Shown: piece after piece, positions 3,674-54,091 of the stretch
Numbering within the stretch: position 1 is the stretch's first letter
Layout of the letters: each line of letters begins with the position of its first letter
Source of the DNA: an uncultured Bacilli bacterium
GTDB lineage: Bacteria; Bacillota_I; Bacilli_A; RF39; UBA660
Reading direction: 5' to 3'
Length of the DNA: 64,000 bases
Assembly: GCA_910579455.1 (NCBI GenBank)
Contig: CAJTUT010000005.1
Coordinates: forward strand, 1,593-65,592
Position numbers and translations under genes: made by a program
The notes under the pieces: model-generated
Told to the model about the DNA's origin: nothing
Databases searched by the model: none
Seen by the model: the letters and a program-made list of their open reading frames with translations, nothing else

Positions 3674-5633
3674 TTAATAACTCGGATTTATTCATTTTTG
3701 AATAATTCTTAATTCCTCTTTCTTTTGCAAGTTGTTTTAATTTAGTAACAGACATTTTCTCAAGACTTGTTGCATCCTCATCTGATGGCATTTTTCCATG
3801 CTCTACTAAATAATCTATTTGCTCTTTAGTAAGAGTTTCGTATTCAAGCAATGTCTCCGCTATTAATTTTAATAATTTTTTATTTTTCTTAATAATTTCC
3901 ATTGCCTTTTTATGACAGTCATCGATAATTTTTCTCATTTCCATATCAATTTCATTAGCCACTTCATTAGAAAAATGTTGACTTTTATTATAATCTCTTC
4001 CTAAAAACACACTACCTTCTTGTTGTTCAAATTGTAAAAGTCCCAGATCACTCATTCCATATTCTGTAACCATGGAACGTGCAATCTTAGTTGCCTTTTC
4101 AAAATCGTTATGTGCACCTGTTGTAATTTCTCCAAAAACAATTTCTTCTGCTGTACGCCCTCCTAATAAACCAGTGATTTGTTCTAATAAATCTGTCTTT
4201 GTAGAACATAATTTTTCTTCACTTGGGACCATCATGTTATATCCTCCAGCAGCTCCACGTGGAATAATTGTAACCTTTTGAACATCATTTGCATTATCTA
4301 ACTTTAACCCAATTACCGCATGCCCTGCTTCATGATAAGCAACTAATTTACGGTCATTATCACTATATTTATGAGAGGTTTTAGCAGGTCCCATAAGTAC
4401 TCTATCTGTTGCTTCATCTATTTCGCTCATAGTAATTATTTCCTTGTTTCTCCTAACCGCTAAAAGAGCTGCTTCATTTAATAGATTTTCTAAATCCGCT
4501 CCACTAAATCCTGGAGTTCTTTTTGCCAAATTTTTCAATGTTATTCCTTGGGCCAATTTCTTATTCTTTGAATGTACTCCCAATATTTCCTCTCTTCCCT
4601 TAACATCAGGTAAGTTCACAGTCACCTGGCGATCAAATCTTCCTGGGCGAAGAAGTGCTGGATCTAATACATCTGGTCTATTGGTTGCTGCAATAATAAT
4701 GATTCCTTCATTTTCCCCAAAACCATCCATTTCTGTCAACAATTGATTTAAGGTTTGTTCTCGTTCATCATGACCTCCACCTAAACCTGTACCTCTTTGA
4801 CGGCCAACTGCATCAATTTCATCAATAAAAATTAGACATGGTGCATTTCTTTTAGCCTGCTGAAACATATCCCTAACACGACTAGCTCCAACACCTACAA
4901 ATAGTTCAACAAAGTCAGAACCACTAATAAAATAGAACGGAACATTAGCCTCTCCCGCTACTGCTCGAGCTAATAAAGTCTTACCTGTTCCTGGAGGTCC
5001 AAATAATAGAACCCCCTTTGGAATCCTAGCCCCTAATTTTTGAAATTTCTTTGGACTCTTTAAAAAGTCAATTAACTCTGCTACTTCTTCTTTTTCTTCT
5101 TGTAAACCAGCGACATCATTAAAAGTAATTTTATTATTACTACTACTTAATTTTGCCTTACTTTTTCCAAAATCCATAGAACTCTTGTTTCCAGCCAGTT
5201 GTCGATTAAAAAAGAAGAATGCAAAGGCAATTAACAAAACAAAGGGTAAGACATTTACAACAATCATTAAGAATGTTGAACTTTCTGGATCTGCTTTTGC
5301 CTCTAATTTAAAATCTTGTACCTCTGATGCCTCCACTATTTTTTTCATAACAGCATCACTCATCGGAAGTCTGGCAAAGAACGTTTGAGACTTTTTAGCA
5401 CCTTTCAAAGATCCTGTGACCTCATATGTCTTAGCATTATCTCTAGCTGTAATAACTAAGTTTTTAATATTCCCCTCGGTTAATTCTCCAATGAACTCAT
5501 TATAAGTAAGATTTTGAATATCTGTATTCATAACATTAAATACATAAAACACACCTATAATAATTAAAAACATAAAAAGATAAGGAACTAAACCCTTTTT
5601 TACATTTTTTTGATTTACAATATTTTTATTCAT
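3657..5633 (-). CDS. ftsH: ATP-dependent zinc metalloprotease FtsH
   Basis: 658 aa; N-terminal TM; AAA Walker A GPPGTGKT, second region of homology; HEAGH zinc motif; C-terminal extension. Confidence 0.95.
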
Positions 5634-8718: not shown

Positions 8719-9503
8719 CTTGGATACCCCACATACATTGTTCCATCTGTAATAATACCACCAATACCATCAGCACCATATTTAGTTTTTTCAATTAAAG
8801 ATATTAAATCAATACTTTTATTTCTAACTGATAAAGCAATAGAAGAGGCTATAATAGCAGGGTCCAACGCGTGAATATTAATTCTTTTAGGACTAGATGC
8901 AAAATTAGCTCCTGCCTTAATCAATTCTTCATAATCAGACTGACAAGCTCCTGAAATAACAATTAGTTTGTTTTGATCCTTTTCATATTTCCTTGCTACT
9001 TTAATAGCTTTAATAAAGTTCTTAGAATTTTGATAGTTTTCAATATTGTTCATATCATTTCTTTTTTTATAATAGGCATCATGGCCCGTAATCACTAAAA
9101 TATCCGGATTATACTCATTTAAATATTGATCAATGTATTTATAGACCTCAGATTCCTTTAACGTGATTCCATATGCTTTTACATTTAAGTCCCGGTAAAA
9201 ATTAATACATCTTTCTAAATATTCCTCATCCCCATCAATGTGCAAAATTTTTCCAGGTAAGTAAAAATATTCTGATCTATCTAGATGAAGACTTTTTAAA
9301 TTTTCATTAATAATCTCTCTATCAGATTTCGATATATTTGGCTTTTTATCCTCCTTTACTAAATCCTTTAATTCACTATCAGCATATAACCTTAACTCAA
9401 TTCCCTTTAAAATAGCTGTACCTTCAGTTATATCAATTATTTTAAATAGAATATCATGATTATAAGACTTTCTACTTACAATATCTCCTACCTTTAAATT
9501 CAT
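8715..9503 (-). CDS. yabG: Sporulation-specific protease YabG
   Basis: 262 aa; YabG family (N-terminal MNLKVGDIVSRKSY..ILFKI; C-terminal GADGIGGIITDG); next to ksgA as in Bacillus. Confidence 0.8.
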   Translation of the reverse strand: MNLKVGDIVSRKSYNHDILFKIIDITEGTAILKGIELRLYADSELKDLVKEDKKPNISKSDREIINENLKSLHLDRSEYFYLPGKILHIDGDEEYLERCINFYRDLNVKAYGITLKESEVYKYIDQYLNEYNPDILVITGHDAYYKKRNDMNNIENYQNSKNFIKAIKVARKYEKDQNKLIVISGACQSDYEELIKAGANFASSPKRINIHALDPAIIASSIALSVRNKSIDLISLIEKTKYGADGIGGIITDGTMYVGYPR

Positions 9504-17021: not shown

Positions 17022-17286
17022 TTTAATTCCTCCTAAAATAAAAATATTATAAATATAAGGACGAAAATATTTTCCGTGGTACCACCTTACTTTATAATAT
17101 TCTATTATACACTTAAATAGTTAACGCCTATCTACGATTATATTTACTTATCAATATAATAGTTCAAAAGCCATATTTTATAATTTTTTATACCTGTTCC
17201 CACCACACACAAGCTCTCTTCATAAAAATATTATAAAACTCTTTCTCATAACTTTTAAATATGGAAGTATTATATCACACTTTTTC

Positions 17287-29315: not shown

Positions 29316-29481
29316 ATATTTCACTCCAAAATAAAGATGCACATGAGAGTTAATTGTTAAAGCTGCTATCTTCCGATCCTGACTTATTTCCAATGCACTC
29401 ATTGCATCAACAATATAATACTATAAATTGTTCGTTAATTACAAGAATTTATTAAAATTTATTGAAATTTTATGATTTTTA

Positions 29482-35232: not shown

Positions 35233-35685
35233 CTATTTTTCATTAACTTTTCTATTTCTCATAATTAAATCTAATCTAGAAGCTCTTAAGACTTGATTTT
35301 CTATAGTTCTTTTTGAAATCGGTACAATTAATTCTACTCCATTATTAAATTTTATTTTAGTACTATTAAATTCTTCTTCTGTAACACATTTAATATTTCT
35401 TAACGAGATCCACATACAATCATCAGAAGTTGGTGAATTAGTAGGAAAAAATATTAAATTTCTACTATTTTCCACAATGATTGGAACTTTATAATTGATA
35501 TTTAGAATTGCTTTTGTTCCCTCTTTTCTCCCTTCATAAGAAGATCCAAAATATTTACAACTATAATCCAATATTTCAAAAGGTGTATTTTCTATGATGT
35601 ATTCTCCTTGATCTTCTAATACTTTACTTTTATTCCTCTCAGTTGGTATAACTGCAAGAGTACCTTCATTAATTTCATATTTCAT
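35233..35685 (-). CDS. comK: ComK-family protein (short, 150 aa)
   Basis: Collinear matches to B. subtilis ComK: YEINEGTLAVIP/YEVNGATIAVLP, SCKYFGSSYEGRKEGT/SCRFFGSSYAGRKAGT, PIIVENSRNLIFFPTNS/PIMVDPSNQIFLFPTLS, CMWISL/CGWISH. Confidence 0.7.
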   Translation of the reverse strand: MKYEINEGTLAVIPTERNKSKVLEDQGEYIIENTPFEILDYSCKYFGSSYEGRKEGTKAILNINYKVPIIVENSRNLIFFPTNSPTSDDCMWISLRNIKCVTEEEFNSTKIKFNNGVELIVPISKRTIENQVLRASRLDLIMRNRKVNEK

Positions 35686-39294: not shown

Positions 39295-40233
39295 ATGAAA
39301 AATAAAAAAACAAAAATTACTTTAGTCATATTATTTTCGTTAATTCTATTAACAACAGGTTGTACAAAGACTTTAACTGATAAAAAAAATAAACCAGTAA
39401 AAAATGAAGTTACTGGTCAAAATTTAACAGAAAATATATTATGTAAACCTACCTCTAAAAAGGTTCAAAAGATTTATATAAAAAATGGAGTTAAAATTAA
39501 TCAGTTACCCACTTGTGAAAAATTTAAAGTTACAAGTGGTAAATATGAGGGTTTATGGACATCAATATTCGTAAAACCATTATCCTTTATTCTGTTAAGA
39601 CTAGGAATACTTCTAAAGAATAATTTTGCTTTATCTTTAATTATTATTAGTTTGATTATTAGACTTATAGCCTATCCATTTACGAAAAAAACAGCAATGC
39701 AATCAGAATTAATGAAAAAAGCTCAACCAGAACTTGCCAAAATTCAAAATAAATATAAAGATAAGCAAGATCAAGATTCAATGATGAGACAAAGCCAAGA
39801 GATGATGGCTGTTTATAAAAAGTATAGTATTAGTCCGATGTCTGGTTGTCTATTTTCTATGATTCAACTTCCTTTATTCATAGCCTTTTTTGAAGCGGTA
39901 CAAAGAACTCCCGCAATTTTTGAGGGAAAATTTTTAGGACTTCAATTAGGAACTACACCAGCAGTTGGTTTTGGAACAAGTGGAATTATTGCTTATGTTA
40001 TATTAATGATTTTAATAGCGGCAACAACTTTTTACTCTTTTAAATTGAATATGACAGGAAATTCCTTGGATGATAATATGAAAATGATGCCATTAATGAT
40101 GAGTGGAATGATTATTGTAATGGCTCTATTTATGCCATCAGCATTAGGAATTTATTGGGTAACTACAAATTTATTTACAGTATTTCAAAACTTATTAGTA
40201 AAAAGGAGTAAAGGAAAAAATGGAAAAGCATAG
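39295..40233 (+). CDS. yidC: Membrane protein insertase YidC (lipoprotein type, SpoIIIJ/YidC2-like)
   Basis: 312 aa; lipobox LLTTGC; 60-kDa IMP core with conserved helices; the ATG follows the rnpA stop. Confidence 0.9.
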   Translation: MKNKKTKITLVILFSLILLTTGCTKTLTDKKNKPVKNEVTGQNLTENILCKPTSKKVQKIYIKNGVKINQLPTCEKFKVTSGKYEGLWTSIFVKPLSFILLRLGILLKNNFALSLIIISLIIRLIAYPFTKKTAMQSELMKKAQPELAKIQNKYKDKQDQDSMMRQSQEMMAVYKKYSISPMSGCLFSMIQLPLFIAFFEAVQRTPAIFEGKFLGLQLGTTPAVGFGTSGIIAYVILMILIAATTFYSFKLNMTGNSLDDNMKMMPLMMSGMIIVMALFMPSALGIYWVTTNLFTVFQNLLVKRSKGKNGKA

Positions 40234-40831
40234 CTATATTGGAAAAACGAAAGAAGAAGCAACTAAGGAAGCAGAAATATCATTACAAGAAACTCGAGAT
40301 CATTTAATTATTCATGAAAGAGAGATTAAACAGGGAGGATTTTTCAAATCTAAAAAAATAGCAATTGAGGTAATTGAAAAAAGAGAAGTTGTGAAGTTTA
40401 TCAAATCCTATCTTTCAATATTAGTAAAAGATTTAGGATTTAATGCTAATATTGAAGTAAAAACAAAAGAAATTCCAACATATATTATTTACTCTGATCA
40501 TGATTCTTTATTAATTGGAAAGAATGGAAAGAATCTGCAAGCTTTATCTAGGATTGTGGCACAAGCTGTATTAAAAGAAGTAGGGGATTCTTTCAAATTC
40601 TTAATTGATGTTAATGAATATAAACAAAAACATGAAAAATCTTTAGAGTATTTGGCAAAAAAGGTAGCTAGAGAAGTGAAAAATTCAAAAGTAGCAGCAA
40701 AATTAGATTCTTTAAATGCTTATGAAAGAAGAATTGTTCATAACATTTTATCGAATAATAAATATGTTTATACAGAAAGTGTAGGCGAAGAACCAAATAG
40801 ATGCTTATTAATAAAACCTAAAGAAGATTAA
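40220..40831 (+). CDS. khpB: RNA-binding protein Jag/KhpB (KH plus R3H)
   Basis: 203 aa; R3H motif YERRIVHNIL; overlaps the yidC end; conserved yidC-jag pair. Confidence 0.85.
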   Translation: MEKHSYIGKTKEEATKEAEISLQETRDHLIIHEREIKQGGFFKSKKIAIEVIEKREVVKFIKSYLSILVKDLGFNANIEVKTKEIPTYIIYSDHDSLLIGKNGKNLQALSRIVAQAVLKEVGDSFKFLIDVNEYKQKHEKSLEYLAKKVAREVKNSKVAAKLDSLNAYERRIVHNILSNNKYVYTESVGEEPNRCLLIKPKED

Positions 40832-40861: not shown

Positions 40862-41659
40862 ATGAATATATATCAAATATTAAATGAAATAACTGAGTAT
40901 ATTGATAATCATTTAGACGAAAAAATAGAATATTTAAAGCTTTCCAAAATGATGGGAGTAAATGAATATACTATGAGAAGAATTTTTTCCTTATTAACGA
41001 ATCAATCTTTATCTGAATATATTAGAAAAAGAAGACTTACTACCGCTGGATATGATTTATATCAAAATCGAAACAAAATAATTGATATTGCCATGAAATA
41101 TCAATATGATAATGCTACATCATTTTCCAGGGCCTTTTTTAAATTTCATGGAATAAAACCAAGTGAAGTAAATAAAAATGCTCAATTAAAAAATTTTCCA
41201 CGTATTATTTTTAACGAAGATATAAAACTACCAGAAGGTATAGAATATAAAATAAAAACTTTAGATGAAATGATTTTTTATGGAATAGGAGTAAAAGTAA
41301 ATAATCAAAATATAGGAAAAATTGCCCCTAAATTTTTTCAAGACTCAAGAAAAAAATATGAATCTACTTATGGAAATATTGAATATGCAATGATTACATA
41401 TCAACAGCAAGATAGAGAACAGTGTAATGGTTATTATATTTTATATCAAAAAAAAATAAAGGGATTTCAAAAATTTATCATTCCTAAAGGAAAATGGCTT
41501 TTTTTTAGAATATCTTCATATGATGATAAGGAAATCCAAAAAGTATCACAACAATTTTATTGTGAATTTCTACCAAGTAGTAAATATAATTTGAGATTAT
41601 CGCAAGAACTTGAATATTACCATGATGGTGTAACTGATTTTATCGTACCAATATATTGA
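40862..41659 (+). CDS. AraC-family transcriptional regulator with a GyrI-like effector domain
   Basis: 265 aa; N-terminal AraC HTH pair (LSKMMGVNEYTMRRIFSLL ... YDNATSFSRAFFKFHGIKPSE), C-terminal GyrI-like half. Confidence 0.75.
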   Translation: MNIYQILNEITEYIDNHLDEKIEYLKLSKMMGVNEYTMRRIFSLLTNQSLSEYIRKRRLTTAGYDLYQNRNKIIDIAMKYQYDNATSFSRAFFKFHGIKPSEVNKNAQLKNFPRIIFNEDIKLPEGIEYKIKTLDEMIFYGIGVKVNNQNIGKIAPKFFQDSRKKYESTYGNIEYAMITYQQQDREQCNGYYILYQKKIKGFQKFIIPKGKWLFFRISSYDDKEIQKVSQQFYCEFLPSSKYNLRLSQELEYYHDGVTDFIVPIY

Positions 41660-42129
41660 AGATTTAAGAAAATTAAGATATAAAGAAAGGATTAGTATCA
41701 TCTTCACAGTATGATCAAATGATAACCCTTGAGAATATAGATTTTATTGTTCGAGATAGTTTAAAAAAATGTGTTTTAGAGAACAATTTTTACATCCTAT
41801 TTCAAATAACTATTTGGATAGTAAACAGAAATATTCTATAAGATTATTAGACGGGAAACATTAAATGAATGATAAGAAGAAATAACTATCTCTAACGAGA
41901 ATCACAGATTGGAAAATTTTTTATGGATTCTTTTTTTATGCTTCTTATAGAAACCGTATTAAAGGAAAATTTCCTTAGGTATTTGAAAGAGTGAAAAAAT
42001 TAAAATCTACTATTGAAAAATATATTTTTAGAAATGCTACAGATATAGACAAAATAATGGATTGTATACATACTATATAATCATTCTAATGAAAAACAAA
42101 GGTAAATCTTAAAAAATAAGATAAATGAT

Positions 42130-42160
42130 AAAACTGATTCCTAAAAAGTCAGTTTTTTTC
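42130..42160 (+). terminator. Orphan rho-independent terminator within the decayed spacer
   Basis: AAAACTGA(42130-42137)...TCAGTTTT(42149-42156) followed by a T-run; no intact ORF upstream within 470 bp. Confidence 0.5.
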
Positions 42161-42199
42161 TTTCTTTATATGATATCTTAACAATTGAGGAGAAAAAAG

Positions 42200-43153
42200 A
42201 TGAAAAAAGAAATATTAGATTTTTATTTAAAAACAAGTGTTTATACAAATTATTATCCATTTGAAGAATATTATAAATCCCTACCAGATGATATGGGAAC
42301 TCTTACTAATTTGCTTCATCATCAAGTAATTCATAGAAGTGAATTAATTAGAAGTTATCTAAACAGCCCTAGTAAGTATGATAGTGAGATTGAACTAAAG
42401 AAAATAAAAGAAGAGTTTCCTTGGTATAGGAATCGATGTGACGATGATATTTTATTAACTGCTCCAGCGATCACAGCAGAATTATTTCGTCAAGATCCTA
42501 GGGGATTTGTAATAGGTAGAGAGATTAAAGATAAAGTAGTAATTACCTGTAGATATGTCTCAGTCCTACTTACATCTATTTTAAAAGCTAAGGGTATTCC
42601 AGCAAGATGTAGAAGTGGATATGCTGACTATTTTTTAAAAAAAAGGGATCATATTTATTATGATCATTGGATAGTTCAATATTATAATGGATATGAAAAA
42701 AGATGGGTAAATGTCGATAGTGATAATGACTATAAGACAGATTTTGATCAATGTGATATTCCAAATAATGAGTTTAAGTGGATTGCCCAAGTTTGGTTAG
42801 ACGTAAGGGAGGGAAAAGATAATCATGAAAATTATATTCATGGAAGGCATCTGAATGGATTAGATCATTTAGCCTATGCCCTATTTTTTGACTTTCATGC
42901 TCTGATGAATGATGAAATATCTTACTTATTTTTTCCAACAATGATTGATGAAAAAAAAGAATTTTTTAATTTATCAGAAGAGAATTTACAAAAACTTGAT
43001 GAGTTAGCAAGACTCATGTTAGATCCAGATAAAAATTTTGATGAATTAAGATATTTATTTAGAAATGATAAATGGTTAAGAGTTATTAATACACCACTTT
43101 TAGGGGATGAAGATCATTTAGAATTAGAGGAAGCTGACAAATTTAAAGGATGA
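42200..43153 (+). CDS. Transglutaminase-like superfamily cysteine protease
   Basis: 317 aa from ATG (GAGGAG RBS); putative Cys-His-Asp triad in ITCRYVSVLL / YYDHWIVQYY / NVDSDND. Confidence 0.7.
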   Translation: MKKEILDFYLKTSVYTNYYPFEEYYKSLPDDMGTLTNLLHHQVIHRSELIRSYLNSPSKYDSEIELKKIKEEFPWYRNRCDDDILLTAPAITAELFRQDPRGFVIGREIKDKVVITCRYVSVLLTSILKAKGIPARCRSGYADYFLKKRDHIYYDHWIVQYYNGYEKRWVNVDSDNDYKTDFDQCDIPNNEFKWIAQVWLDVREGKDNHENYIHGRHLNGLDHLAYALFFDFHALMNDEISYLFFPTMIDEKKEFFNLSEENLQKLDELARLMLDPDKNFDELRYLFRNDKWLRVINTPLLGDEDHLELEEADKFKG

Positions 43154-43206
43154 AATGTCAGTTTTTCTAACTTTAAATATGATGGTTTAAGTTTGGGGGA
43201 TAATGT

Positions 43207-45057
43207 ATGCAACAAACTTCTGAAGTTTATTTAACAGAAAAATATGTATCAAAAGAAAAGTGGGAAAAGTTAATCAAAGTTATAGCAAAATATAATGGAA
43301 CACTAAAATCTTTTCAAATAATCGTAGAGCTTTCTAATCAAAAAATAAAATATTATTTAAAAACAAAATGTAATCTTCCACCTTCTATAAATAATTTATC
43401 TTCCTTTTTAATCAAACCGGTTAGGAAAAAAAATAATTCTAGAATTCAACAATCAATTCCATTTTTTATATCTGCCAATAGCAATTTTTTTCATATTTTA
43501 GAGACATTAGAAGTAAAACAAAAAGGAAGGGTTTCTTATATTGAGATCCATTTTAGAAAATTATATCAAGATTGTATTAAAACAAGAACTTATTTATATT
43601 TAGAAAAAAATCATCAAGTAACAAGGCATAGAGTTTTTTGTTGTATACCTACTAGTATCCTATCTTTAGATTTTTCAAAAAATACAAGATATCTTTATCA
43701 ATCAGCACCAAAATATTTAGATATTAGTAAGATTATGCATCTTTTAAGTAGTGATTCTACTTCTTCCATTTTAAATGTAGATACTTTTCCTTATTTACAA
43801 GGAAAATTTTATTTAAATCAAAATCATTATAATTTTGATAAACATTCGATTATTATAGGTTCTAGTGGCTGTGGAAAGTCAAAATTTATTAGTTTATTCA
43901 TCAATAATATAAGAAAAAATAGAAAAACCTATCAAAAATATAAAGTTGTTCTAATAGATCCCCATGCATCCTTAGAAAAGGATATTGGGGGAATCGGAAA
44001 AGTAATTGATTTTCAGGCATCAGAAGATAGTATTGATTTATTTCAAGATAAAAGTGAAGATGTAGTATCTCAAGCAGAACTATTATTGGAACTGTTTCAA
44101 TCTTTAATTTGTGATCAATATAATTCAAAATTAGAAAGACTATTAAGACATAGTATCCATCTTCTTTTAATTGGAAATTGTTTTAATTTTACTAACTTAA
44201 GAAAAATTATTTTAGATAGTGAATATAGAATAGAAATTTTAAATCAGTCAAAAAACAAAATTCCATTTAGTATTACTTCTTTTTTCTTAGCAGATTTTAA
44301 TGATTTAAAAACAAAATCTTATGGAGAAGCAATATCCCCATTGATTGCTTTTTTAGATGAAATGGAAATGATTCCAGTTTTTAATAATCAAAACAATTCT
44401 CATCACCTAAAAAAAGTAATTGATGATAATTTTTTAACTTTATTTTCCTTAGATAGAACTAAACTAGGTGATAAAGTAACCAAAACAATTTCAGGATTGA
44501 TCATGCAACAGCTACTTCTGTTAGCTCAAAGCTATCAAATAGATTCTCATGTCATCTTTATCATTGATGAAATTTCAACTGTAGAAAATCCAATACTTCC
44601 TAGATTTTTATCAGAAGCTAGAAAATATAACCTATCTTTAGTTTTAGCAGGACAGTACTTTAATCAAATCTCAAATAGCTTAAAAGATGCTATATTTTCC
44701 AATGTTTGTAATTATTATATATTTAGAACTTCAAAGATGGATGCTAGGGTATTAGTAGACAACTTTAATATGAAAATACCATTAGAAGATAATGATGATA
44801 AAAAAATGAAATTATTAACCGATCTAAAAGCAAGAGAATGTGTGGTAAGAATAGATGCCAATGGAACACTGCTTCCAGCATTTAAAGCAAGAACTCTAGA
44901 TTTTAAAAGTATCCCTAGAATCACTAGGAATAAAGAAAATGTATTAGAAAAGTCACAACAAAAAGAATTAAAAGATTTTAAATTTAATTTAGGTCAAGTT
45001 GATTTAAAGAGTATTTTAATATCAAATTCTTCTAGTAGAAAGGAGATAAAAAAATGA
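43207..45057 (+). CDS. HerA/FtsK/VirB4-superfamily P-loop NTPase (DUF87-like) with a 200-aa N-terminal domain
   Basis: 616 aa; Walker A IIGSSGCGKSKF, Walker B HVIFIIDEIS, then ARKYNLSLVLAGQ (the RKyG..Q sensor typical of the HerA/VirB4 clade); GGGGGA RBS. Confidence 0.7.
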   Translation: MQQTSEVYLTEKYVSKEKWEKLIKVIAKYNGTLKSFQIIVELSNQKIKYYLKTKCNLPPSINNLSSFLIKPVRKKNNSRIQQSIPFFISANSNFFHILETLEVKQKGRVSYIEIHFRKLYQDCIKTRTYLYLEKNHQVTRHRVFCCIPTSILSLDFSKNTRYLYQSAPKYLDISKIMHLLSSDSTSSILNVDTFPYLQGKFYLNQNHYNFDKHSIIIGSSGCGKSKFISLFINNIRKNRKTYQKYKVVLIDPHASLEKDIGGIGKVIDFQASEDSIDLFQDKSEDVVSQAELLLELFQSLICDQYNSKLERLLRHSIHLLLIGNCFNFTNLRKIILDSEYRIEILNQSKNKIPFSITSFFLADFNDLKTKSYGEAISPLIAFLDEMEMIPVFNNQNNSHHLKKVIDDNFLTLFSLDRTKLGDKVTKTISGLIMQQLLLLAQSYQIDSHVIFIIDEISTVENPILPRFLSEARKYNLSLVLAGQYFNQISNSLKDAIFSNVCNYYIFRTSKMDARVLVDNFNMKIPLEDNDDKKMKLLTDLKARECVVRIDANGTLLPAFKARTLDFKSIPRITRNKENVLEKSQQKELKDFKFNLGQVDLKSILISNSSSRKEIKK

Positions 45058-45752
45058 GTGATGAAAAAACATTAGAAATAGTAAATAAGATTTTTAAAAA
45101 TGTATTTGGAAGGGAAAATCATAATTCGTTAGATGAAATATTAGAAAAATTTGCCTTTGATATCAAACTACCAAAAAAAGTAAGAGACTCTGTTACCAAT
45201 GAAATTACTTGGGCAGACTCTATCAATAGTGGAAAATATATCACTTTAGAAAATATGCAAGCGAAAGATCAAAAAGATGGTTGGATGGTAGAAAAAAGAG
45301 AAGTAAATAATTTAGAAGATTTAGTTAGAATCTGGAATAGTATTAATTTAACGACAACAGAAAGAGTTTATGATTCAGAAAATGTTGCTAAAAGTGATAC
45401 CATTTATGGATGTGAAAATGTTTATAGATCAACCGATTGCAGGGGTTCTAAAAATATGATTTTTTGTGACTCCTGCGGATCAAGCGAATTTCTATTAGCA
45501 TCTCAAAGAAGTGGATCTTCAAGTTTTTGTATTAGAACAGATGATTCTAAAGATTGTAGTAATAGTTATAATGTAGTCTGTTCTAACAAAATTATGAATT
45601 CGTTCTTTATTCAAGATTGTTTTGATTTATATGAATGTATCTTTTGTTCTCATATAGCAAGTAAAAAATATTGCATTGCCAATATGCAGTTTGAGGAAGA
45701 AGAATATTTTTTAATCAAAAATTCTATTATAGATTGGATTTTAAATTCTTAA
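45054..45752 (+). CDS. Cysteine-rich hypothetical protein, translationally coupled to the ATPase
   Basis: 232 aa; ATGA start/stop overlap with the upstream gene; C-terminal 110 aa carries 12 Cys at a roughly 9-residue periodicity (C120, 129, 138, 141, 159, 168, 176, 189, 195, 198, 207). Confidence 0.6.
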   Translation: MSDEKTLEIVNKIFKNVFGRENHNSLDEILEKFAFDIKLPKKVRDSVTNEITWADSINSGKYITLENMQAKDQKDGWMVEKREVNNLEDLVRIWNSINLTTTERVYDSENVAKSDTIYGCENVYRSTDCRGSKNMIFCDSCGSSEFLLASQRSGSSSFCIRTDDSKDCSNSYNVVCSNKIMNSFFIQDCFDLYECIFCSHIASKKYCIANMQFEEEEYFLIKNSIIDWILNS

Positions 45753-45837: not shown

Positions 45838-47193
45838 ATGGATGATAATATTGTTGCAATAGCAACCTCTTTAGGAGTGGGTGCTATCTCTATTATTAGA
45901 TTAAGTGGAAAAGAAGTCATAAAGATTACAAATTCAATTTTTAAGGGAAAAAATTTAGAAAGAGTGAACTCCCATACCATAAATTATGGATATATTGTAG
46001 ATCAAGAAGAAGTAATTGATGAAGTACTAGTATCTGTGATGAAGGCTCCTAAAACATATACCAAGGAAGATATTATAGAAATTAATTGTCATGGAGGAAT
46101 TGCCACAACGAATAGAATATTAGAACTAATCTTAACAAAAGATGTACGTCTAGCTGAACCAGGAGAATTTACTAAAAGAGCTTTTTTAAATGGAAGAATT
46201 GATTTAACAGAGTCAGAAGCAGTGATGGATTTATTAGAAAGTAAAACAGAAAGTGCAAGACATTTAGCAATATCAAACATTCAAGGAAAGACCCATGAAA
46301 TGGTAGAGGATTTTAGAAATAGACTGAAAGATTTACTCTCATCTATAGAAGTCAATATTGATTATCCAGAATATCATGATATTGAGATTATAACAGTAGA
46401 TAAAATAAAAGGACAAGTAAAACAGATGAAACAAGAATTAGAGATCATTATAAAGGAATCAAAAAATACAAAAGTATTAAAGGAAGGAATTTATACTTTA
46501 ATTATTGGAAGACCTAATGTTGGAAAAAGTAGTCTTTTAAACCAATTTTTAGAAGAAGAAAAAGCAATTGTAACCAATATTCCAGGGACAACAAGGGATA
46601 TGATAGAAGGACAAGTCATATTAAATGGAATCTCTTTGAATATGATAGATACTGCTGGGGTTAGGAAAACAACGGATCAAGTAGAAAAAATAGGGGTAGA
46701 AAAAAGTTTATCATTAATCAAACAGGCAGATTTAGTAATTGTTGTTTTAAATGGATCAGAAGCTTTGACAAAGGAAGATCAATATATTTTAGAAAAAACA
46801 AAGGAAAAAAACACTATTGTAGTAATTAATAAAAATGATTTAGAACAAAAATTAAAAACAGAAAAATTAAATGATTTTACATTAGTAAGTACTAATACCA
46901 ATCATATAAAAGGAATTCAACCTCTAAAAGATAAAATAATAGAATTATTTGAATTAGATAAAATCAGTTCGAAAGACTATATTTATTTTTCAAATATAAG
47001 ACAAATATCAAAGGCAAAAGAAGCCCATCAAAAATTAATAGAAGTAGAAGAGGGAATAGAAAACAAGTTACCAATTGATATGATCGAGATAGATTTAAAA
47101 GCATGTTTTGATTTTTTAGGAGAAATTATAGGAAAAACATATAGTGATGAAATTATCGATCATTTATTTGAAAAGTTTTGTGTAGGAAAGTAG
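45838..47193 (+). CDS. mnmE: tRNA modification GTPase MnmE
   Basis: 451 aa; G1 GRPNVGKSSLLN, TTRD, DTAG; C-terminal CxGK (CVGK). Confidence 0.95.
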   Translation: MDDNIVAIATSLGVGAISIIRLSGKEVIKITNSIFKGKNLERVNSHTINYGYIVDQEEVIDEVLVSVMKAPKTYTKEDIIEINCHGGIATTNRILELILTKDVRLAEPGEFTKRAFLNGRIDLTESEAVMDLLESKTESARHLAISNIQGKTHEMVEDFRNRLKDLLSSIEVNIDYPEYHDIEIITVDKIKGQVKQMKQELEIIIKESKNTKVLKEGIYTLIIGRPNVGKSSLLNQFLEEEKAIVTNIPGTTRDMIEGQVILNGISLNMIDTAGVRKTTDQVEKIGVEKSLSLIKQADLVIVVLNGSEALTKEDQYILEKTKEKNTIVVINKNDLEQKLKTEKLNDFTLVSTNTNHIKGIQPLKDKIIELFELDKISSKDYIYFSNIRQISKAKEAHQKLIEVEEGIENKLPIDMIEIDLKACFDFLGEIIGKTYSDEIIDHLFEKFCVGK

Positions 47194-47200
47194 GAAAGAT

Positions 47201-47863
47201 ATGAAAATAGCGGTTATTGAACGTATCGAAATGGATTTAGAAAGAGATCCATTTAACAGGAGACTTTTTTTAAGTAGTCATTTTCAAGATCTATTTGAAA
47301 AATTAAATATTTTGTGGATTCCAATTGTGTCAGACAAGTTTTCCAAGGAGATATGTGCAATGTGTGATGGTTTATTAGTAACTGGAAGTGCAAATGATGT
47401 TCATCCTAAATATTATAATGAACAGGTATTAAAAGGGAAAGAATACATCCATGATGAATTTCCAATAGTAAAAAAGGCTGTTGAAGTTTTTTCTAAAAAT
47501 AATAAGCCAATACTAGGTATTTGTGCAGGAATACAAGAAATAAATGTAGTATATGGTGGAACATTAAATCAACATATTGGGAATCATGATTTAAAAGAAG
47601 GGGAATATCATAAAATAGAAATTAAAAAAGACTCACTATTATATGACATATATAAAAAAGAAGGTATAGAGGTAAATTCCTATCATAAGCAATCGATTAA
47701 AAAGGTAGCACCTGGATTTAAAGTAGGAGCAATTAGTAGTGATGGAGTAATAGAAGAAATAGAAAAAGAAAATGTCATAGCAGTCCAGTGGCATCCAGAA
47801 GTAGTATATGATATGAAATTATTTGAGAAATTTATCAATATGTGTAAAGAAAGTAGTGATTAG
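47201..47863 (+). CDS. Class I glutamine amidotransferase-like / peptidase C26 (gamma-glutamyl hydrolase family)
   Basis: 220 aa; nucleophile motif ILGICAGIQE; His/Glu in VQWHPE; inserted between mnmE and mnmG. Confidence 0.7.
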   Translation: MKIAVIERIEMDLERDPFNRRLFLSSHFQDLFEKLNILWIPIVSDKFSKEICAMCDGLLVTGSANDVHPKYYNEQVLKGKEYIHDEFPIVKKAVEVFSKNNKPILGICAGIQEINVVYGGTLNQHIGNHDLKEGEYHKIEIKKDSLLYDIYKKEGIEVNSYHKQSIKKVAPGFKVGAISSDGVIEEIEKENVIAVQWHPEVVYDMKLFEKFINMCKESSD

Positions 47864-50551: not shown

Positions 50552-53500
50552 GTGATATTTATAGAAAATTTAGAACAATTATTAAAAAAAGAGATTAAAA
50601 AGTATCCTGTATTACCTGATGAAGAACAAATGTTGTTAGCAAAACAATATAAAAAAAGTGGAGACAAAAAATCTTTTGAAAAATTATTTCATCATAATTT
50701 AAGATTATGTTTAAAAGTATCCTACAAATATAGCGGTAAATTAGAAAGTATGACTTTTCTAGATTTATTTCAAGAATGTAGTATCATTTTAATGAATGCT
50801 ATTAAACATTATAATCCAACTGGGGAAGCAAAGTTTTCAACATATGCAATGTCTGCATTAGAAAAAACGATAAAAAACAGAATATTTGAATTAGATAAAA
50901 CCATACGAACACCAGTATATAAAGAAGAACAAAAAACAAAATATTACCAGTTTATAACCGAATATAATCAACAGTACCATAAAAATCCAACTAAAAAAGA
51001 AATAAAGGAAAAACTAGGGCTTAATGATGATCAGTTAAAAAATTTAGAAATGAATATAGGACAAAAATCCATATCATTAGATCAAAAAATTTCATCTGAG
51101 GAAGATTCCGTTGAGTTAATAGAATTGATACCAAATAAGAATAATGATTATAAAGATATAGAATCAAGTTATGATATGAATATCTTAAAAAATAAATGTG
51201 TACAGATTCTAACTAAAGAAGAGTATTATATTATTTATTATAGGTATATATCAGAAGAAAGAAAAACATTAGATCAAATAGGAAAAGAATTTAATCTAAC
51301 CATAGAAAGCATTAGGCAAGTAGAAAAAAAGGCTTTAGAAAAGTTAAAACGAAGAATAAAATCTAAAAAAGTAAATGATAAGTATAATAAAAACTTAGAT
51401 CCACTTTCTATAGATACGACTATTCTTTTAAACGAATTAAAAAAATATTTATCAAATGAAGAATATTTTATTTTATATTCTACTATAGTACAAGAAATGA
51501 GTACTGACATCAGTACCGAAGATCATGTGCATGATCTTCAAATATTAGATTTAGATAAAGAAAAATTATTAGATATCAAAAAATATTTACTAGAGGTTTT
51601 TAATCATTATAAAAAAGAAAAAAATCTTGAATGTTTAAGGGATAATTATCATAAAAACTATACAGTTGCACAGATTATGGAGCTAAATATAAATATAAGT
51701 TCAAGAGATTTGATGGATTTTCATTTACTAGAACAGTATTTCCGAACAGTGAGTATAGAGGAGATTAAGAATACTAAATATTATGAAAATCTTTCTTTAA
51801 AAAATCAGAAGTTAATACAAAAATACTATGATTATAATGATCGATATTTGAGAAAAAGTGAGATAAAGCAAATAGAACAGGAGTTAACATTAGAAAAATT
51901 TGGATATTTAGAAACAGAAAAAACTTTATATGATAGAAAAGAATTACAAAAAATATATCTAAAAAATAGAGAAATTTTAACACAAAAAGAGCAAGAAATT
52001 CTAGGAGTAATTTTATTTAGAAATAATCAATCCTATAGTCTAAAAGAATCTACCAGACAAAAATATATAAATAGATTAATAAAAATAGAATTTAAAATCA
52101 AGGATTTTTATCAAAATAAAATAACAAAAAAACAAATAGAACAAATTTTAGAATATCATCCAAATTTGCTATCACAAGATGAGAAAGAACTAATATGTAA
52201 AAGTTATGGAGTTAATCAAGATAAAATCAGTTTGAAAGAGTTAGCAAAAGAGTATTCTGTCTCTTATGAGGAATTACACGATAAAGTATTTACTTTAAAA
52301 AATAGAATATTATGTAAATATTATCAAATTACAGAAGGAAAAAAAGATGAGTTACCAGAAGATGAGAAAAAACTTTACCAGATGTATCTCTCAAACGTAC
52401 AGTATGAATTTTCTGTGGATACTAGAAGAATTTTAGGAATGTTTCTATCTGGAAAGAATTATCAAGAGATTGCTACTATAGAAAAGATATCTATAACTAA
52501 AGTATCAAATTTTATCACAGAAGGACTTCGAAAATGTGAATTTTATAAATATGGAATTATAGTACCTTTTCTCATACAAGAAGAGGAAATAGATATAGTC
52601 TTGCAACTACATCAATATAGTGAAATAAAAAAGAAACTAATAAAAGAGAGATACTTAAAGTTAAAAATGTTAACTGAGTTATCAAATGAATATCATATAA
52701 ATAAACAAGATATAAGCAAGCTAAAGGAAAAATTTTATGATCAATATTTAAAATGGAAATGTCCACAAATTTCAATCAATCAGTATGAAGAAGAAATAAA
52801 AAGGCATCAGGCAGATTCAGTATTAACAGAAGAAGAAAAAAGCATGGTAGCATTTAAATATGGAATTAAGTGCGAATATAATCCAATGGGAAAAAAAGAA
52901 AAGAATCAAGAAATTGCTGATCATTTTTCTATTTCATTAAACTGTTGTAAGGCAAAAATAAACTCTTTCAATAGAAAAATGAGAGAAAGAATATTAAGAT
53001 TAACTATGCCCAAATATGGAATTATTAGAAGAGATGAAATGAGAAAAATCCTAAACAATAATCCTTTATTGATAAGTGAAAAGGAAAGGGATATTATTTG
53101 TCATACAAATGAATTAAATGGTTATTGTTATTTGAGTGAAACCGAGTTAAAAGAAAAATATCAAGAGAGATCTAATAACTTCAAACGAAGATATGATAGA
53201 GCGGTACTTTCAATAAAAAAATATCAAGATAATCTCCTTCCAAGGAAAATTGACTATCAAAAAGATATAAAAAATATAGAACGATATTTTAGTAAATATG
53301 ATAGAAAACTATTAGAAATGATTTATAACCAAAGATTAACAGAAAAACAAATAGCTGAAAAATTAGAAATCACTGATTTTCAAAGTAGACAAAAAATAAT
53401 TAAAATTAAACTTGATGTTGCAGAAATTTTAAACGATGAACCCCAAGCAAAAATGTTTGATTTTGATTATGCACGTAAAGTAATAGATCAAGAAGACTTA

Positions 53501-54091
53501 CCACTATACTATATAAATAATAATTTAGCTAAAACAATTTATCAAATGATAACAGGAGAGAATGGACAAAAAAAGTATACATCTAAAGATGTTGTTAAAG
53601 AATTAAATTTGATTGTTCCACAAAAGGCTCTTGATAATTGCTGTTATAGTGTAATGATTGCTATTGAAAAATATAAAAGAGGAATTAGGAAAGTCAAAAC
53701 CGTTACTACTGAAGAAATAATAGATTATTACCAACATAGCAAAGAAAAAATACCAGTAGAAATAAAAAGCTATATAGAAAAGAAAGTTTTCAATAATCCC
53801 TTAGCAAATCAAAAAACTCTCCCAAATAAATTAATATATGAAATATTAAAATATCGAGGAGAATTTTCTATTGATATTAATCAAATAAATCATACTACAG
53901 CAAGAGAATTAGTAAGAAATAAAAAATTAACTAGTTCTTGCAGAAAAAAAATTAAAGGTTATTTTCAAATTCCAGAAAGAGAAATAATGAATGGAAAAGA
54001 AAAATTAAAAGTATTAAAGTTATTATCTCCTTTATATAAAAAGAGGGAATATCAAGATGAATTTAAATGCTTGAAGAAATCTAAAGATTAA
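50552..54091 (+). CDS. Giant sigma-70-family protein: complete sigma core (regions 2-4) fused to a roughly 900-aa array of tandem region-4-like HTH modules
   Basis: 1179 aa from GTG. N-terminus is collinear with SigA regions 2.1-2.4 (NLRLCLKVSYKY, FLDLFQECSIILMNAIKHYNP, FSTYAMSALEKTIKNRI, IRTPVY) and region 4 (LDQIGKEFNLTIESIRQVEKKALEKLKRR); about nine further sigma4-like repeats follow. Confidence 0.75.
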   Translation: MIFIENLEQLLKKEIKKYPVLPDEEQMLLAKQYKKSGDKKSFEKLFHHNLRLCLKVSYKYSGKLESMTFLDLFQECSIILMNAIKHYNPTGEAKFSTYAMSALEKTIKNRIFELDKTIRTPVYKEEQKTKYYQFITEYNQQYHKNPTKKEIKEKLGLNDDQLKNLEMNIGQKSISLDQKISSEEDSVELIELIPNKNNDYKDIESSYDMNILKNKCVQILTKEEYYIIYYRYISEERKTLDQIGKEFNLTIESIRQVEKKALEKLKRRIKSKKVNDKYNKNLDPLSIDTTILLNELKKYLSNEEYFILYSTIVQEMSTDISTEDHVHDLQILDLDKEKLLDIKKYLLEVFNHYKKEKNLECLRDNYHKNYTVAQIMELNINISSRDLMDFHLLEQYFRTVSIEEIKNTKYYENLSLKNQKLIQKYYDYNDRYLRKSEIKQIEQELTLEKFGYLETEKTLYDRKELQKIYLKNREILTQKEQEILGVILFRNNQSYSLKESTRQKYINRLIKIEFKIKDFYQNKITKKQIEQILEYHPNLLSQDEKELICKSYGVNQDKISLKELAKEYSVSYEELHDKVFTLKNRILCKYYQITEGKKDELPEDEKKLYQMYLSNVQYEFSVDTRRILGMFLSGKNYQEIATIEKISITKVSNFITEGLRKCEFYKYGIIVPFLIQEEEIDIVLQLHQYSEIKKKLIKERYLKLKMLTELSNEYHINKQDISKLKEKFYDQYLKWKCPQISINQYEEEIKRHQADSVLTEEEKSMVAFKYGIKCEYNPMGKKEKNQEIADHFSISLNCCKAKINSFNRKMRERILRLTMPKYGIIRRDEMRKILNNNPLLISEKERDIICHTNELNGYCYLSETELKEKYQERSNNFKRRYDRAVLSIKKYQDNLLPRKIDYQKDIKNIERYFSKYDRKLLEMIYNQRLTEKQIAEKLEITDFQSRQKIIKIKLDVAEILNDEPQAKMFDFDYARKVIDQEDLPLYYINNNLAKTIYQMITGENGQKKYTSKDVVKELNLIVPQKALDNCCYSVMIAIEKYKRGIRKVKTVTTEEIIDYYQHSKEKIPVEIKSYIEKKVFNNPLANQKTLPNKLIYEILKYRGEFSIDINQINHTTARELVRNKKLTSSCRKKIKGYFQIPEREIMNGKEKLKVLKLLSPLYKKREYQDEFKCLKKSKD

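Follow-up and report, generated by a model that had tools for sequence, protein, structure and literature searches.

A predicted ring ATPase and its beta-solenoid partner encoded together in gut Bacilli and Candidate Phyla Radiation bacteria

The window analyzed here is a 64,000-nucleotide stretch of DNA from an uncultured Bacilli bacterium (GTDB lineage Bacillota_I, Bacilli_A, RF39, UBA660; assembly GCA_910579455.1, contig CAJTUT010000005.1, positions 1,593 to 65,592). Between jag and mnmE it carries a cassette of four genes, which encode an AraC/GyrI-type regulator, a transglutaminase-like protein, a P-loop ATPase and a cysteine-rich protein, hereafter the partner. Comparison with related loci indicates that the core unit of the cassette is the ATPase together with the partner, usually with the regulator as a third member, and that the pair occurs in gut Bacilli and in the Candidate Phyla Radiation (CPR). 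A preliminary description of the window had proposed a candidate defense or toxin-type module. The pair proved to be undescribed, but the contextual marks of a defense or toxin island were not found, and defense is not the leading reading. We favor a chemically induced complex that would maintain or protect nucleic acid, probably DNA; confidence is low for this function and high for the anatomy and evolutionary description of the cassette. The predicted beta-solenoid partner, the N-terminal domain of the ATPase, the distribution over CPR and gut Bacilli and the putative regulator/palindrome wiring are new, whereas membership of the FtsK/HerA superfamily and the combination of a ring ATPase with a partner as a kind of system were already known. 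No description of the pair was found in the searchable literature (MADS, Saccharibacteria with HerA/DUF87, and CPR with HerA and beta-helix).

The conserved gene pair and the partner protein

Conservation of the cassette was examined in 83 non-redundant loci from related gut Bacilli metagenome-assembled genomes (MAGs) and in 27 environmental loci, which were fetched with a profile of distant family members (31 CPR loci, counting four looked up separately). The partner gene directly followed the ATPase gene in all 83 Bacilli loci, and a partner homologue followed every ATPase scoring more than approximately 160 bits in the environmental sample (27/27, two of which were rescued beyond open reading frame [ORF] calling). 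The earlier claim that the ATPase and the cysteine-rich protein are a tightly coupled, undescribed pair was therefore upheld, the two occurring together in all of the more than 110 loci. In 101 pairs, the partner start codon lay −71 to +21 bp from the ATPase stop codon, most often at −4 or −8. Two features reported earlier for the window, a 53-bp gap upstream of the ATPase gene and an ATGA overlap that couples the partner gene to it translationally, were both read off the sequence. The distance matrices of the ATPase and the partner were correlated with r = 0.96 across the 101 pairs and 0.90 within Bacilli. This correlation and the tight gene spacing are strong evidence that the two genes are inherited as a pair, and their products probably interact physically.

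A cluster of regulator genes was represented in 66 of the 83 Bacilli loci, and no other gene family recurred in more than 8. An AraC/GyrI orthologue lay directly upstream of the ATPase gene in 64 of 74 GTDB loci (approximately 86%), a count that leaves out six loci truncated by the end of a contig. ATPase homologues of approximately 61% identity on unrelated large contigs, in three unrelated neighborhoods, showed the same plan: an AraC/GyrI gene (264-265 aa), a 77-bp spacer, an ATPase gene (616-618 aa) and a gene for a partner of 232-233 aa, without a transglutaminase gene. The preliminary description had set the regulator apart from the operon and had placed the transglutaminase-like gene in a trio with the pair. 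Neither assignment held: the third member is as a rule the regulator, and most cassettes have no transglutaminase-like gene, whose position varies among the six lineages that carry it.

Several irregular loci were also seen. On one CPR-like contig the partner gene is tandemly duplicated behind a single ATPase gene (L107:8011-8715 and 8725-9432), and the second copy is more divergent (235 versus 270 bits). In three low-GC metagenome contigs (L120, L121 and L122), two overlapping ORFs, broken at approximately residue 240, take the place of a single ATPase ORF, and in L128 the regulator, the ATPase and the partner are all in many fragments; these split or fragmented cassettes could be assembly or sequencing errors or real pseudogenes. 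A DUF3800-VIII RNA (RF03075, 56.6 bits versus a gathering threshold of 40.2) was detected 77 bp downstream of a partner gene at L020:10632-10699 (+); it had no match in the window.

The partner had no match in Pfam, NCBIfam or PADLOC, and a PDB sequence search with it returned nothing. An AlphaFold2 model from 24 close homologues reached a predicted local distance difference test score (pLDDT) of 43, and the model became confident only once CPR homologues were added: from a 121-sequence alignment of Bacilli and CPR proteins, the pLDDT was 95.3 and the predicted template modeling score 0.88. This model has helices and a small sheet in residues 1-100, four-residue strands every six residues in 109-205 and a C-terminal helix in 215-231. 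The partner is thus predicted to be an N-terminal alpha/beta domain followed by a beta-solenoid of hexapeptide period (approximately residues 105-210) and a C-terminal helix.

The solenoid repeat is N-[VI]-x-x-[SC]-x. Column statistics revealed inward ladders of Ser/Cys and of Val/Ile/Cys, three residues apart, and a ladder of Asn/Asp at the turns. The C-terminal half is cysteine-rich as had been noted, with all cysteines of the window protein within residues 120-207, but their number is 11 instead of the 12 counted before, and their spacings, mostly multiples of 3, fit a 6-residue repeat and not the proposed period of approximately 9. The mean number of cysteines was 12.1 in the Bacilli clade and 6.5 in the CPR clade. 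Only C198 was invariant; C159, C168 and C207 were conserved in at least 90% of the sequences, and the other cysteine positions are occupied by serine in CPR homologues. Because of this exchange, the cysteines are taken as core-packing residues interchangeable with serine, and a metal or Fe-S ladder was rejected. Of the two likenesses suggested earlier, solenoid or metal ladder, the AlphaFold2 model retained the first. The idea that the Cys/Ser-rich half is the precursor of a ribosomally synthesized and post-translationally modified peptide was also rejected, on the grounds of full-length conservation, a confident fold and the lack of recurring modification enzymes nearby. The partner is acidic (net charge approximately −8 to −9, pI 4.9), and its invariant polar residues (K32, D36, D45, E103, D115, R152, D164, S165, D188 and N210) form no recognized motif.

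Foldseek searches of PDB and BFVD with the partner model retrieved only hexapeptide left-handed beta-helix enzymes, with E values of approximately 1e-4 and TM scores of 0.15-0.25, which indicates the same class of fold without a specific relative. In common with LpxA/LpxD, GlmU and gamma-carbonic anhydrase, the partner has a six-residue strand period and inward ladders of small and aliphatic residues. It differs from the left-handed beta-helix transferases in these low TM scores, in having no Pfam Hexapep match at E values up to 10, in its repeat (their consensus is [LIV]-G-x-x-[STAV]-x) and in keeping neither the acyltransferase histidine nor the zinc histidine triad (H200 is Asn in CPR).

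The layout of the partner, an alpha/beta domain plus a beta-helix of approximately 100 residues in approximately 230 aa, recalls that of MinC, and one CPR locus adjoins hrcA-grpE-dnaK. The pair could accordingly be imagined as an ATP-driven machine acting on proteins, the envelope or the division apparatus, for example a MinD/MinC-like system or an unfoldase for damaged proteins. This is improbable, since MinC and bactofilin were absent from the best 50 Foldseek matches, Pfam MinC_C gave no match, the ATPase is of the FtsK/HerA type and not of the MinD/ParA type, and the chaperone adjacency was seen in a single locus.

The ATPase and its relation to HerA and coupling proteins

The ATPase contains IIGSSGCGKSKF at residues 216-227, IFIIDEIS at residues 450-457 and ARKYNLSLVLAGQ at residues 471-483, so that the Walker A, Walker B and sensor-block strings quoted in the preliminary description were all recovered. 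Nine residues of these motifs (G218, G221, G223, K224, D454, E455, R472, K473 and Q483) were invariant in 79 diverse members of the family. A 'VIDPHA' motif follows Walker A, and a long insertion brings the spacing of Walker A and Walker B to approximately 225 residues. The window protein matched the Pfam models TrwB_AAD_bind, DUF87 and TraG-D_C; in the family, DUF87 (the HerA central domain) was matched by 79/79 proteins, TrwB_AAD_bind by 77/79, FtsK_SpoIIIE by 57/79 and TraG-D_C by many. The best matches are thus DUF87/HerA-central and type IV coupling protein (T4CP) models, which does not support the former assignment to a VirB4 clade. The N-terminal domain of approximately 200 residues had been thought unique to the window protein; the N-terminal 205 or so residues proved to be conserved throughout the large family. 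Residues 1-205 of five diverse members gave no Pfam match, to a HAS-barrel or otherwise. From these sequence comparisons, the ATPase is assigned to a distinct soluble clade of the FtsK/HerA/T4CP superfamily. No Pfam family and no solved relative exists for the partner or for this N-terminal domain.

In Sir2-HerA and DUF4297-HerA, a HerA-type ATPase and a small partner make up a defense system. The cassette resembles these systems and HerA-NurA in that its ATPase has a DUF87-type core, 'DPH' after Walker A and an 'ARK...Q' block, and in that the ATPase gene is operonic with the gene of one smaller, co-evolving partner. It could on this basis be an anti-phage defense or abortive-infection system, in which the HerA-like ATPase would scaffold and activate a beta-helix effector under control of the AraC gene. 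The Sir2-HerA and DUF4297-HerA structures were the best HerA matches in PDB, and PADLOC returned weak matches of the ATPase to mad8 (51.7 bits, 2.3e-14) and to HerA models. However, the PADLOC and PDB HerA matches are confined to approximately residues 170-275, the generic P-loop region; likewise, the family profile matched the PDB sequences of EssC, several HerA chains and TrwB only around Walker A. The NCBIfam model HerA_antiphage scored 16.7 bits against a cut-off of 800, well short of full-length HerA similarity. PADLOC matched none of the 121 partner sequences, nor the regulator or the transglutaminase-like protein, in agreement with the earlier remark that the genes fit no known HerA pairing. 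The partner is a predicted beta-solenoid and not a NurA, Sir2 or DUF4297 nuclease/NADase, and the genomic context is of a housekeeping kind, both of which distinguish the cassette from the HerA systems. From MADS (the mad1-mad8 locus) it is set apart by having only the weak mad8 match on the ATPase core.

The ATPase also resembles T4CPs such as TrwB/VirD4/TraD and TcpA. TrwB_AAD_bind and TraG-D_C were the best full-domain Pfam matches in relatives of the ATPase, the stretch from Walker A to Walker B would leave room for an all-alpha insertion, and the nearest out-group consists of membrane-anchored, T4CP-like ATPases of 900-950 aa with an N-terminal hydrophobic anchor and clearer T4CP matches. 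An essential type IV secretion system (T4SS) without a recognizable coupling protein has been reported in Saccharibacteria (PMC10633639), and a ComK-family gene is present in the window. The ATPase could then be an orphan coupling protein feeding DNA or protein to a T4SS, a type IV pilus or the competence machinery, with the beta-helix as adaptor or cargo. We think this quite unlikely. The cassette ATPase lacks the N-terminal anchor of a T4CP, no 19-residue window exceeding a Kyte-Doolittle value of 1.6 (the T4CP-like out-group proteins do exceed it), and has its own N-terminal domain and an obligate beta-helix partner. No T4SS, pilus or relaxase gene was found within 10 kb on either side of the window cassette or in approximately 110 related loci, which agrees with the earlier observation that conjugation partner genes are missing and shows that the homologues are not embedded in T4SS clusters. 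Furthermore, no obvious orthologue of the pair appeared in the annotated Southlakia transposon sequencing tables, and AraC/GyrI control with detoxification-type inserts is ill-suited to secretion.

Out-group ATPases of this kind were found in a conserved triad of, in order, topA, a gene for a 350-aa protein with Sigma70_r4 and HARE-HTH domains, and the gene of the T4CP-like ATPase (L137:1114-7542 and L164:501-7740; also L142, L159 and L165), a coupling-protein-like gene in a housekeeping setting.

Regulator, cis element and inserted genes

The identification of the first ORF as an AraC/GyrI regulator was confirmed by Pfam matches to HTH_18 (2.8e-16), HTH_AraC (2.4e-6), GyrI-like (5.4e-9) and Cass2 (2.6e-8). 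The NCBIfam model RobA_TF aligned with residues 5-255 at 69.4 bits against a cut-off of 380, too low for a RobA orthologue. By its domain matches, the regulator is of the AraC/XylS type with a C-terminal GyrI-like (Cass2) effector-binding domain, a Rob-like architecture. Members of the mar/sox/rob regulon include nfsA/nfnB and acrAB. The cassette is similar to the Rob/MarA/SoxS regulons in combining a double helix-turn-helix with a GyrI-like domain and in the joining of nitroreductase and efflux genes to the operon in some genomes. In contrast to them, its constant target is the ATPase and beta-helix pair and not efflux genes, and its candidate operator is not a marbox but an inverted repeat of 8 bp with a 17-bp spacing.

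This candidate operator, AAACTGAC-N17-GTCAGTTT, lies in the spacer between the regulator and ATPase genes, which is 77-80 bp long and is conserved as a nucleotide sequence across 62 species with only approximately 60% protein identity. The consensus of the 62 spacers is, in order, TAA, AAACTGAC, N17, GTCAGTTTTTTATTTT, TG-n-TATAnT, GAGGTG and ATG; that of the palindrome is AAACTGAC-N17-GTCAGTTTTTT, with a reference copy at L020:7920-7975. Read as DNA the spacer contains the 8-bp inverted repeat, and read as RNA a 10-bp stem with a U-run that resembles an intrinsic terminator. No known RNA element was found in it by Rfam. The strict palindrome was confined, across 1.17 Mb of related loci, to the regulator-ATPase spacer (45 loci) and a second copy in L043, and loci without the regulator were mostly without the palindrome.

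The window copy (CTGAC-N18-GTCAG with a T-run) overlaps the stop codon of the transglutaminase-like gene, is the sole match to the search pattern in the 64 kb, and folds with −13.2 kcal/mol (z = −3.3). The promoter-like site of the window consists of ATGTCA, 17 nt and TATGAT, followed by a GGGGG Shine-Dalgarno sequence, and these correspond to the conserved TG-n-TATAnT and GAGGTG of the 62 spacers; such a consensus match alone is no proof of function, and promoter and terminator scans of the window gave background levels. Palindrome, promoter-like site and Shine-Dalgarno sequence are repeated after each insert in L043 and L091 and at both ends in L093. We read this arrangement as a terminator of the regulator gene that doubles as, or adjoins, the putative operator of the regulator, so that inserted genes would join the regulon. 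The repeated copies suggest that the palindrome-promoter element is a reusable module recruiting new genes to the operon, which would be a simple route for regulon growth.

The transglutaminase-like gene is one such insert. The Cys/His/Asp core ascribed to its product was borne out by a Transglut_core match marginally above the cut-off (25.4 bits versus 23) and by the contexts of Cys117, His156 and Asp173-175 (TCRY, DHWI and VDSD); the orthologue in L043 scored 33.2 bits. The protein is placed by sequence in the transglutaminase-like, papain-fold cysteine protease superfamily. Its gene accompanies the cassette in only 6 lineages, in four arrangements. It lies between the regulator and ATPase genes in the window, in L091 and L092 (ATPases 82% and 71% identical to that of the window) and in L043, and downstream of the partner gene in L049. 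In L093 the order is regulator, nitroreductase, transglutaminase-like gene, ABC exporter, ATPase and partner, operon-like (L093:2220-9070). The gene is a facultative insert and recurrent accessory cargo, not core, and in the window it is presumably cargo of the same regulon as the pair. Elsewhere the slot between regulator and ATPase holds a nitroreductase gene (L028) or a radical-SAM/NUDIX gene, a methyltransferase gene and a PnuC gene (L079). In L093 the string is followed by genes for an Fe/Mn superoxide dismutase and a desulfoferrodoxin, which gives this locus a stress or detoxification flavor.

The spacer between the regulator and transglutaminase-like genes of the window had been regarded as decayed, correctly, since it is the remnant of a gene for a 223-aa protein that is intact in L091. 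Positions 41760-42077 match the C-terminal half of the L091 ORF (tblastn, 32% identity over 106 aa, E = 1e-14), the spacer is 66.6% identical to L091 at the nucleotide level over 437 bp (blastn), and only ORFs of 40 aa or less are left in it. L092 has an unrelated 328-aa gene at this position.

Distribution, genomic setting and proposed function

In a scan with one genome per species, 166 GTDB species carried the Bacilli form of the ATPase. The 80 that were listed are all uncultured gut or rumen MAGs, labeled mostly as Bacilli, Erysipelotrichaceae, Tenericutes, Mollicutes or Ca. Coprovivens, with a few Muribaculaceae, Clostridia and Firmicutes. An exhaustive profile search with the ATPase gave 144 clusters (50% identity) at E ≤ 1e-30 and 1003 at E ≤ 1e-10; the family is a continuum of full-length relatives down to approximately 25% identity, and the databases hold approximately 1,000 to 1,700 relatives of each protein of the pair. 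Named distant members belong to Candidatus Saccharimonadales and Candidatus Woesebacteria (KKU17241.1, UniRef100_A0A0G1N9R0, 'uncharacterized protein'). The environmental contigs range from 23% to 59% GC, and the AraC gene was found only on low-GC, Bacilli-like ones.

The neighbors of the pair in CPR genomes are housekeeping genes, none of which is general. One syntenic group has uvrB upstream and gatCAB downstream; other loci have an intein-bearing pcrA together with an RpfB/YabE-like gene, glycolysis genes and dnaG-rpoD, or, in one locus, gmk and cmk upstream and hrcA-grpE-dnaK-dnaJ downstream. At L129:3330-5969, the gene directly upstream of the pair encodes a PcrA/UvrD helicase with an Intein_splicing match at residues 310-424.

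The cassette is bounded in the window by jag/R3H (203 aa, 40220-40831) and mnmE (45838-47193), and all four ORFs are on the + strand (Table 1). As was stated earlier, four genes intervene between jag and mnmE; this follows from the ORF listing and from the flank identities, which were taken from Pfam labels of the identical contig JAAVYZ010000003.1 of MAG GCA_022791375.1 ('Bacilli bacterium'). The labels give the gene order rpmH-rnpA-yidC-jag ... mnmE-mnmG-rsmG. The exact ATPase is present on 23 contigs, with an identical arrangement in all.

Table 1. Features of the cassette in the window, and copies of the repeated element in related loci (prefixed L)
Feature	Position	Strand	Basis
AraC/GyrI regulator ORF, 265 aa	40862-41659	+	ORF listing
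Decayed accessory-gene remnant	41660-42199	+	tblastn/blastn versus L091
Transglutaminase-like ORF	42185-43153 (322 aa) or from ATG 42200 (317 aa)	+	
Palindrome/hairpin with T-run, putative cis element	43134-43166	+	regex match
Promoter-like site and Shine-Dalgarno sequence	43155-43206	+	consensus scan, direct reading
P-loop ATPase ORF, 616 aa	43207-45057	+	
Predicted beta-solenoid partner ORF, 232 aa	45054-45752	+	
Repeated element copies	L043:3257-3288, 4265-4295; L091:3793-3813, 4793-4822		

Divergence was compared with L091 and L092, because the window and the distant loci share no genes. Between the window and L091, the flanking products were 85% (rnpA), 95% (yidC), 89% (jag), 84% (mnmE) and 88% (mnmG) identical, and those of the cassette 86% (regulator), 89% (transglutaminase-like), 82% (ATPase) and 88% (partner). 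The GC content (0.22-0.31) and skew of the segment are like those of the flanks, and no compositional anomaly was detected in it. The location between jag and mnmE, described before as a hot spot, is real for the window but holds only for its small sub-clade; in other genomes the cassette lies elsewhere. Because its divergence equals that of the flanking core genes and no mobile or defense marks were found, the cassette is judged to be an old component of the oriC region of the sub-clade, well constrained and passed on vertically, and the segment a lineage-stable chromosomal cassette rather than a recent island.

These data bear on the idea of a conjugative or integrative element remnant, or of a toxin trio of transglutaminase, ATPase and cysteine-rich protein, at an oriC-proximal hot spot. 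The cassette does break the canonical jag-mnmE pair, and a plasmid search with the ATPase gave matches to T4SS coupling-protein genes, which were weak, partial and only 24-32% identical. Nevertheless, the idea is largely refuted and now highly improbable: no relaxase, VirB4, integrase or repeat boundary was found at the window cassette, its composition is that of the flanks, the insertion is common to L091 and L092 and diverges like core genes, most cassettes are missing the transglutaminase-like gene, and the partner was absent from all plasmids searched.

The defense reading introduced above gains from the fact that the genomic position of the cassette differs between genomes. Against it, the partner had no relative in 72,556 plasmids or IMG/VR, and the phage collection gave no match with the ATPase, the only query used there. 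No recurrent defense or mobile-element neighbors were found in the approximately 110 loci. The lone integrase element nearby is an approximately 3-kb unit at L008:2746-5731 that encodes a tyrosine integrase, two small ORFs and a RepSA/G2P-type Rep, with the direct repeat ATTCCCCTCATCCGCTCCA; carriage of the cassette by this element was rejected, since direct repeats of 19-32 nt at 2746 and 5700 bound the integrase-Rep module alone, which adjoins and excludes the cassette. In addition, partner sequences from an order-level clade share 67-77% identity, their evolution is like that of neighboring housekeeping genes, and every nameable carrier lineage has small genomes (Proteobacteria and other phyla were not the target of a direct search). 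We judge defense unlikely; the case shows that the layout of an ATPase with a small protein is insufficient for annotating a defense system.

Our best explanation, plausible rather than probable as a whole, is a chemically induced nucleic-acid-handling complex of the ATPase and its beta-helix partner. The regulator would bind a xenobiotic or metabolite via its GyrI-like domain and switch on the palindrome-associated promoter or promoters. A hexamer of the ATPase would then assemble, with either the solenoid or the conserved N-terminal domain of the partner docked on the ring, and ATP would drive the translocation or remodeling of nucleic acid, most likely DNA, under chemical or genotoxic stress; the partner might serve as an adaptor, a regulator or a DNA-like plug. 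HerA, FtsK and TrwB are hexameric rings acting on DNA, and the hexamer and the DNA substrate are proposed from their behavior, whereas the link to chemical stress is drawn from the type of regulator and the detoxification-type inserts. In Bacilli, the pair would be set behind a dedicated Rob-like small-molecule sensor, and the slot would repeatedly gain genes, each with a copy of the element; in L093, the nitroreductase, the papain-fold/transglutaminase-like protein and the ABC exporter in series resemble a route of reduction, modification and export. A functional analogy exists with MfpB-MfpA and the Qnr-type beta-helix DNA mimics, in that an NTPase is encoded with an acidic beta-helix protein, here with a GyrI-like drug-binding sensor upstream; the partner differs in having a hexapeptide and not a pentapeptide repeat, and the NTPase in being a predicted ring translocase and not a small GTPase.

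Several observations weigh against the nucleic-acid-handling complex. The partner has no recognizable catalytic or DNA-binding motif. The CPR versions are without the AraC regulator, which would confine the inducible logic to Bacilli. A general DNA-repair neighborhood was rejected, as the adjacency to uvrB, gatCAB or pcrA was found in only 3-4 syntenic loci; where it occurs in CPR genomes, proximity to uvrB or pcrA is weakly compatible with a role in nucleic-acid maintenance. The palindrome may be merely the terminator of the regulator gene, the core-like standing of the pair is derived from sequence conservation and context only, and a HerA-type ATPase with a small partner is also typical of several defense systems.

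CPR bacteria and these groups of gut Bacilli have very small genomes and depend heavily on other organisms. That the pair is kept so faithfully in small genomes points to a probably important role. A more specific version of our proposal, doubtful as a complete statement, is that the pair is an ATP-driven machine of CPR bacteria and small-genome gut Bacilli that, under chemical attack, protects or repairs either DNA itself or an enzyme working on it, for instance a topoisomerase; the ring ATPase would handle the acidic beta-solenoid as a DNA-like adaptor, and in Bacilli a GyrI-type drug sensor would recruit nitroreductase, transglutaminase-like and efflux genes via the palindrome-promoter module. 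The confident partner model, together with a defined regulator, a candidate operator and a promoter-like site, makes the system testable.

Other features of the window were noted in passing. A Peptidase_C26/GATase gene (220 aa, 47201-47863) between mnmE and mnmG is a second break in the canonical oriC-proximal order; it is the least conserved gene of the neighborhood (69% identity to L091), and L091 has an extra 166-aa gene there. Between rsmG and parB lies a gene for a 1179-aa protein with sigma-70 regions 2, 3 and 4 (approximately 50552-54091; L001:17346-20885), unusually long for a sigma factor. The ComK-family gene (approximately 35233-35685; L001:2027-2479, − strand) is located between dnaN and recF and hints at a competence regulon. 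Rfam matches in the window, unrelated to the cassette, were a T-box leader at 17054-17258 (−; 102 bits) and a small signal recognition particle RNA at 29321-29418 (−; 53 bits).

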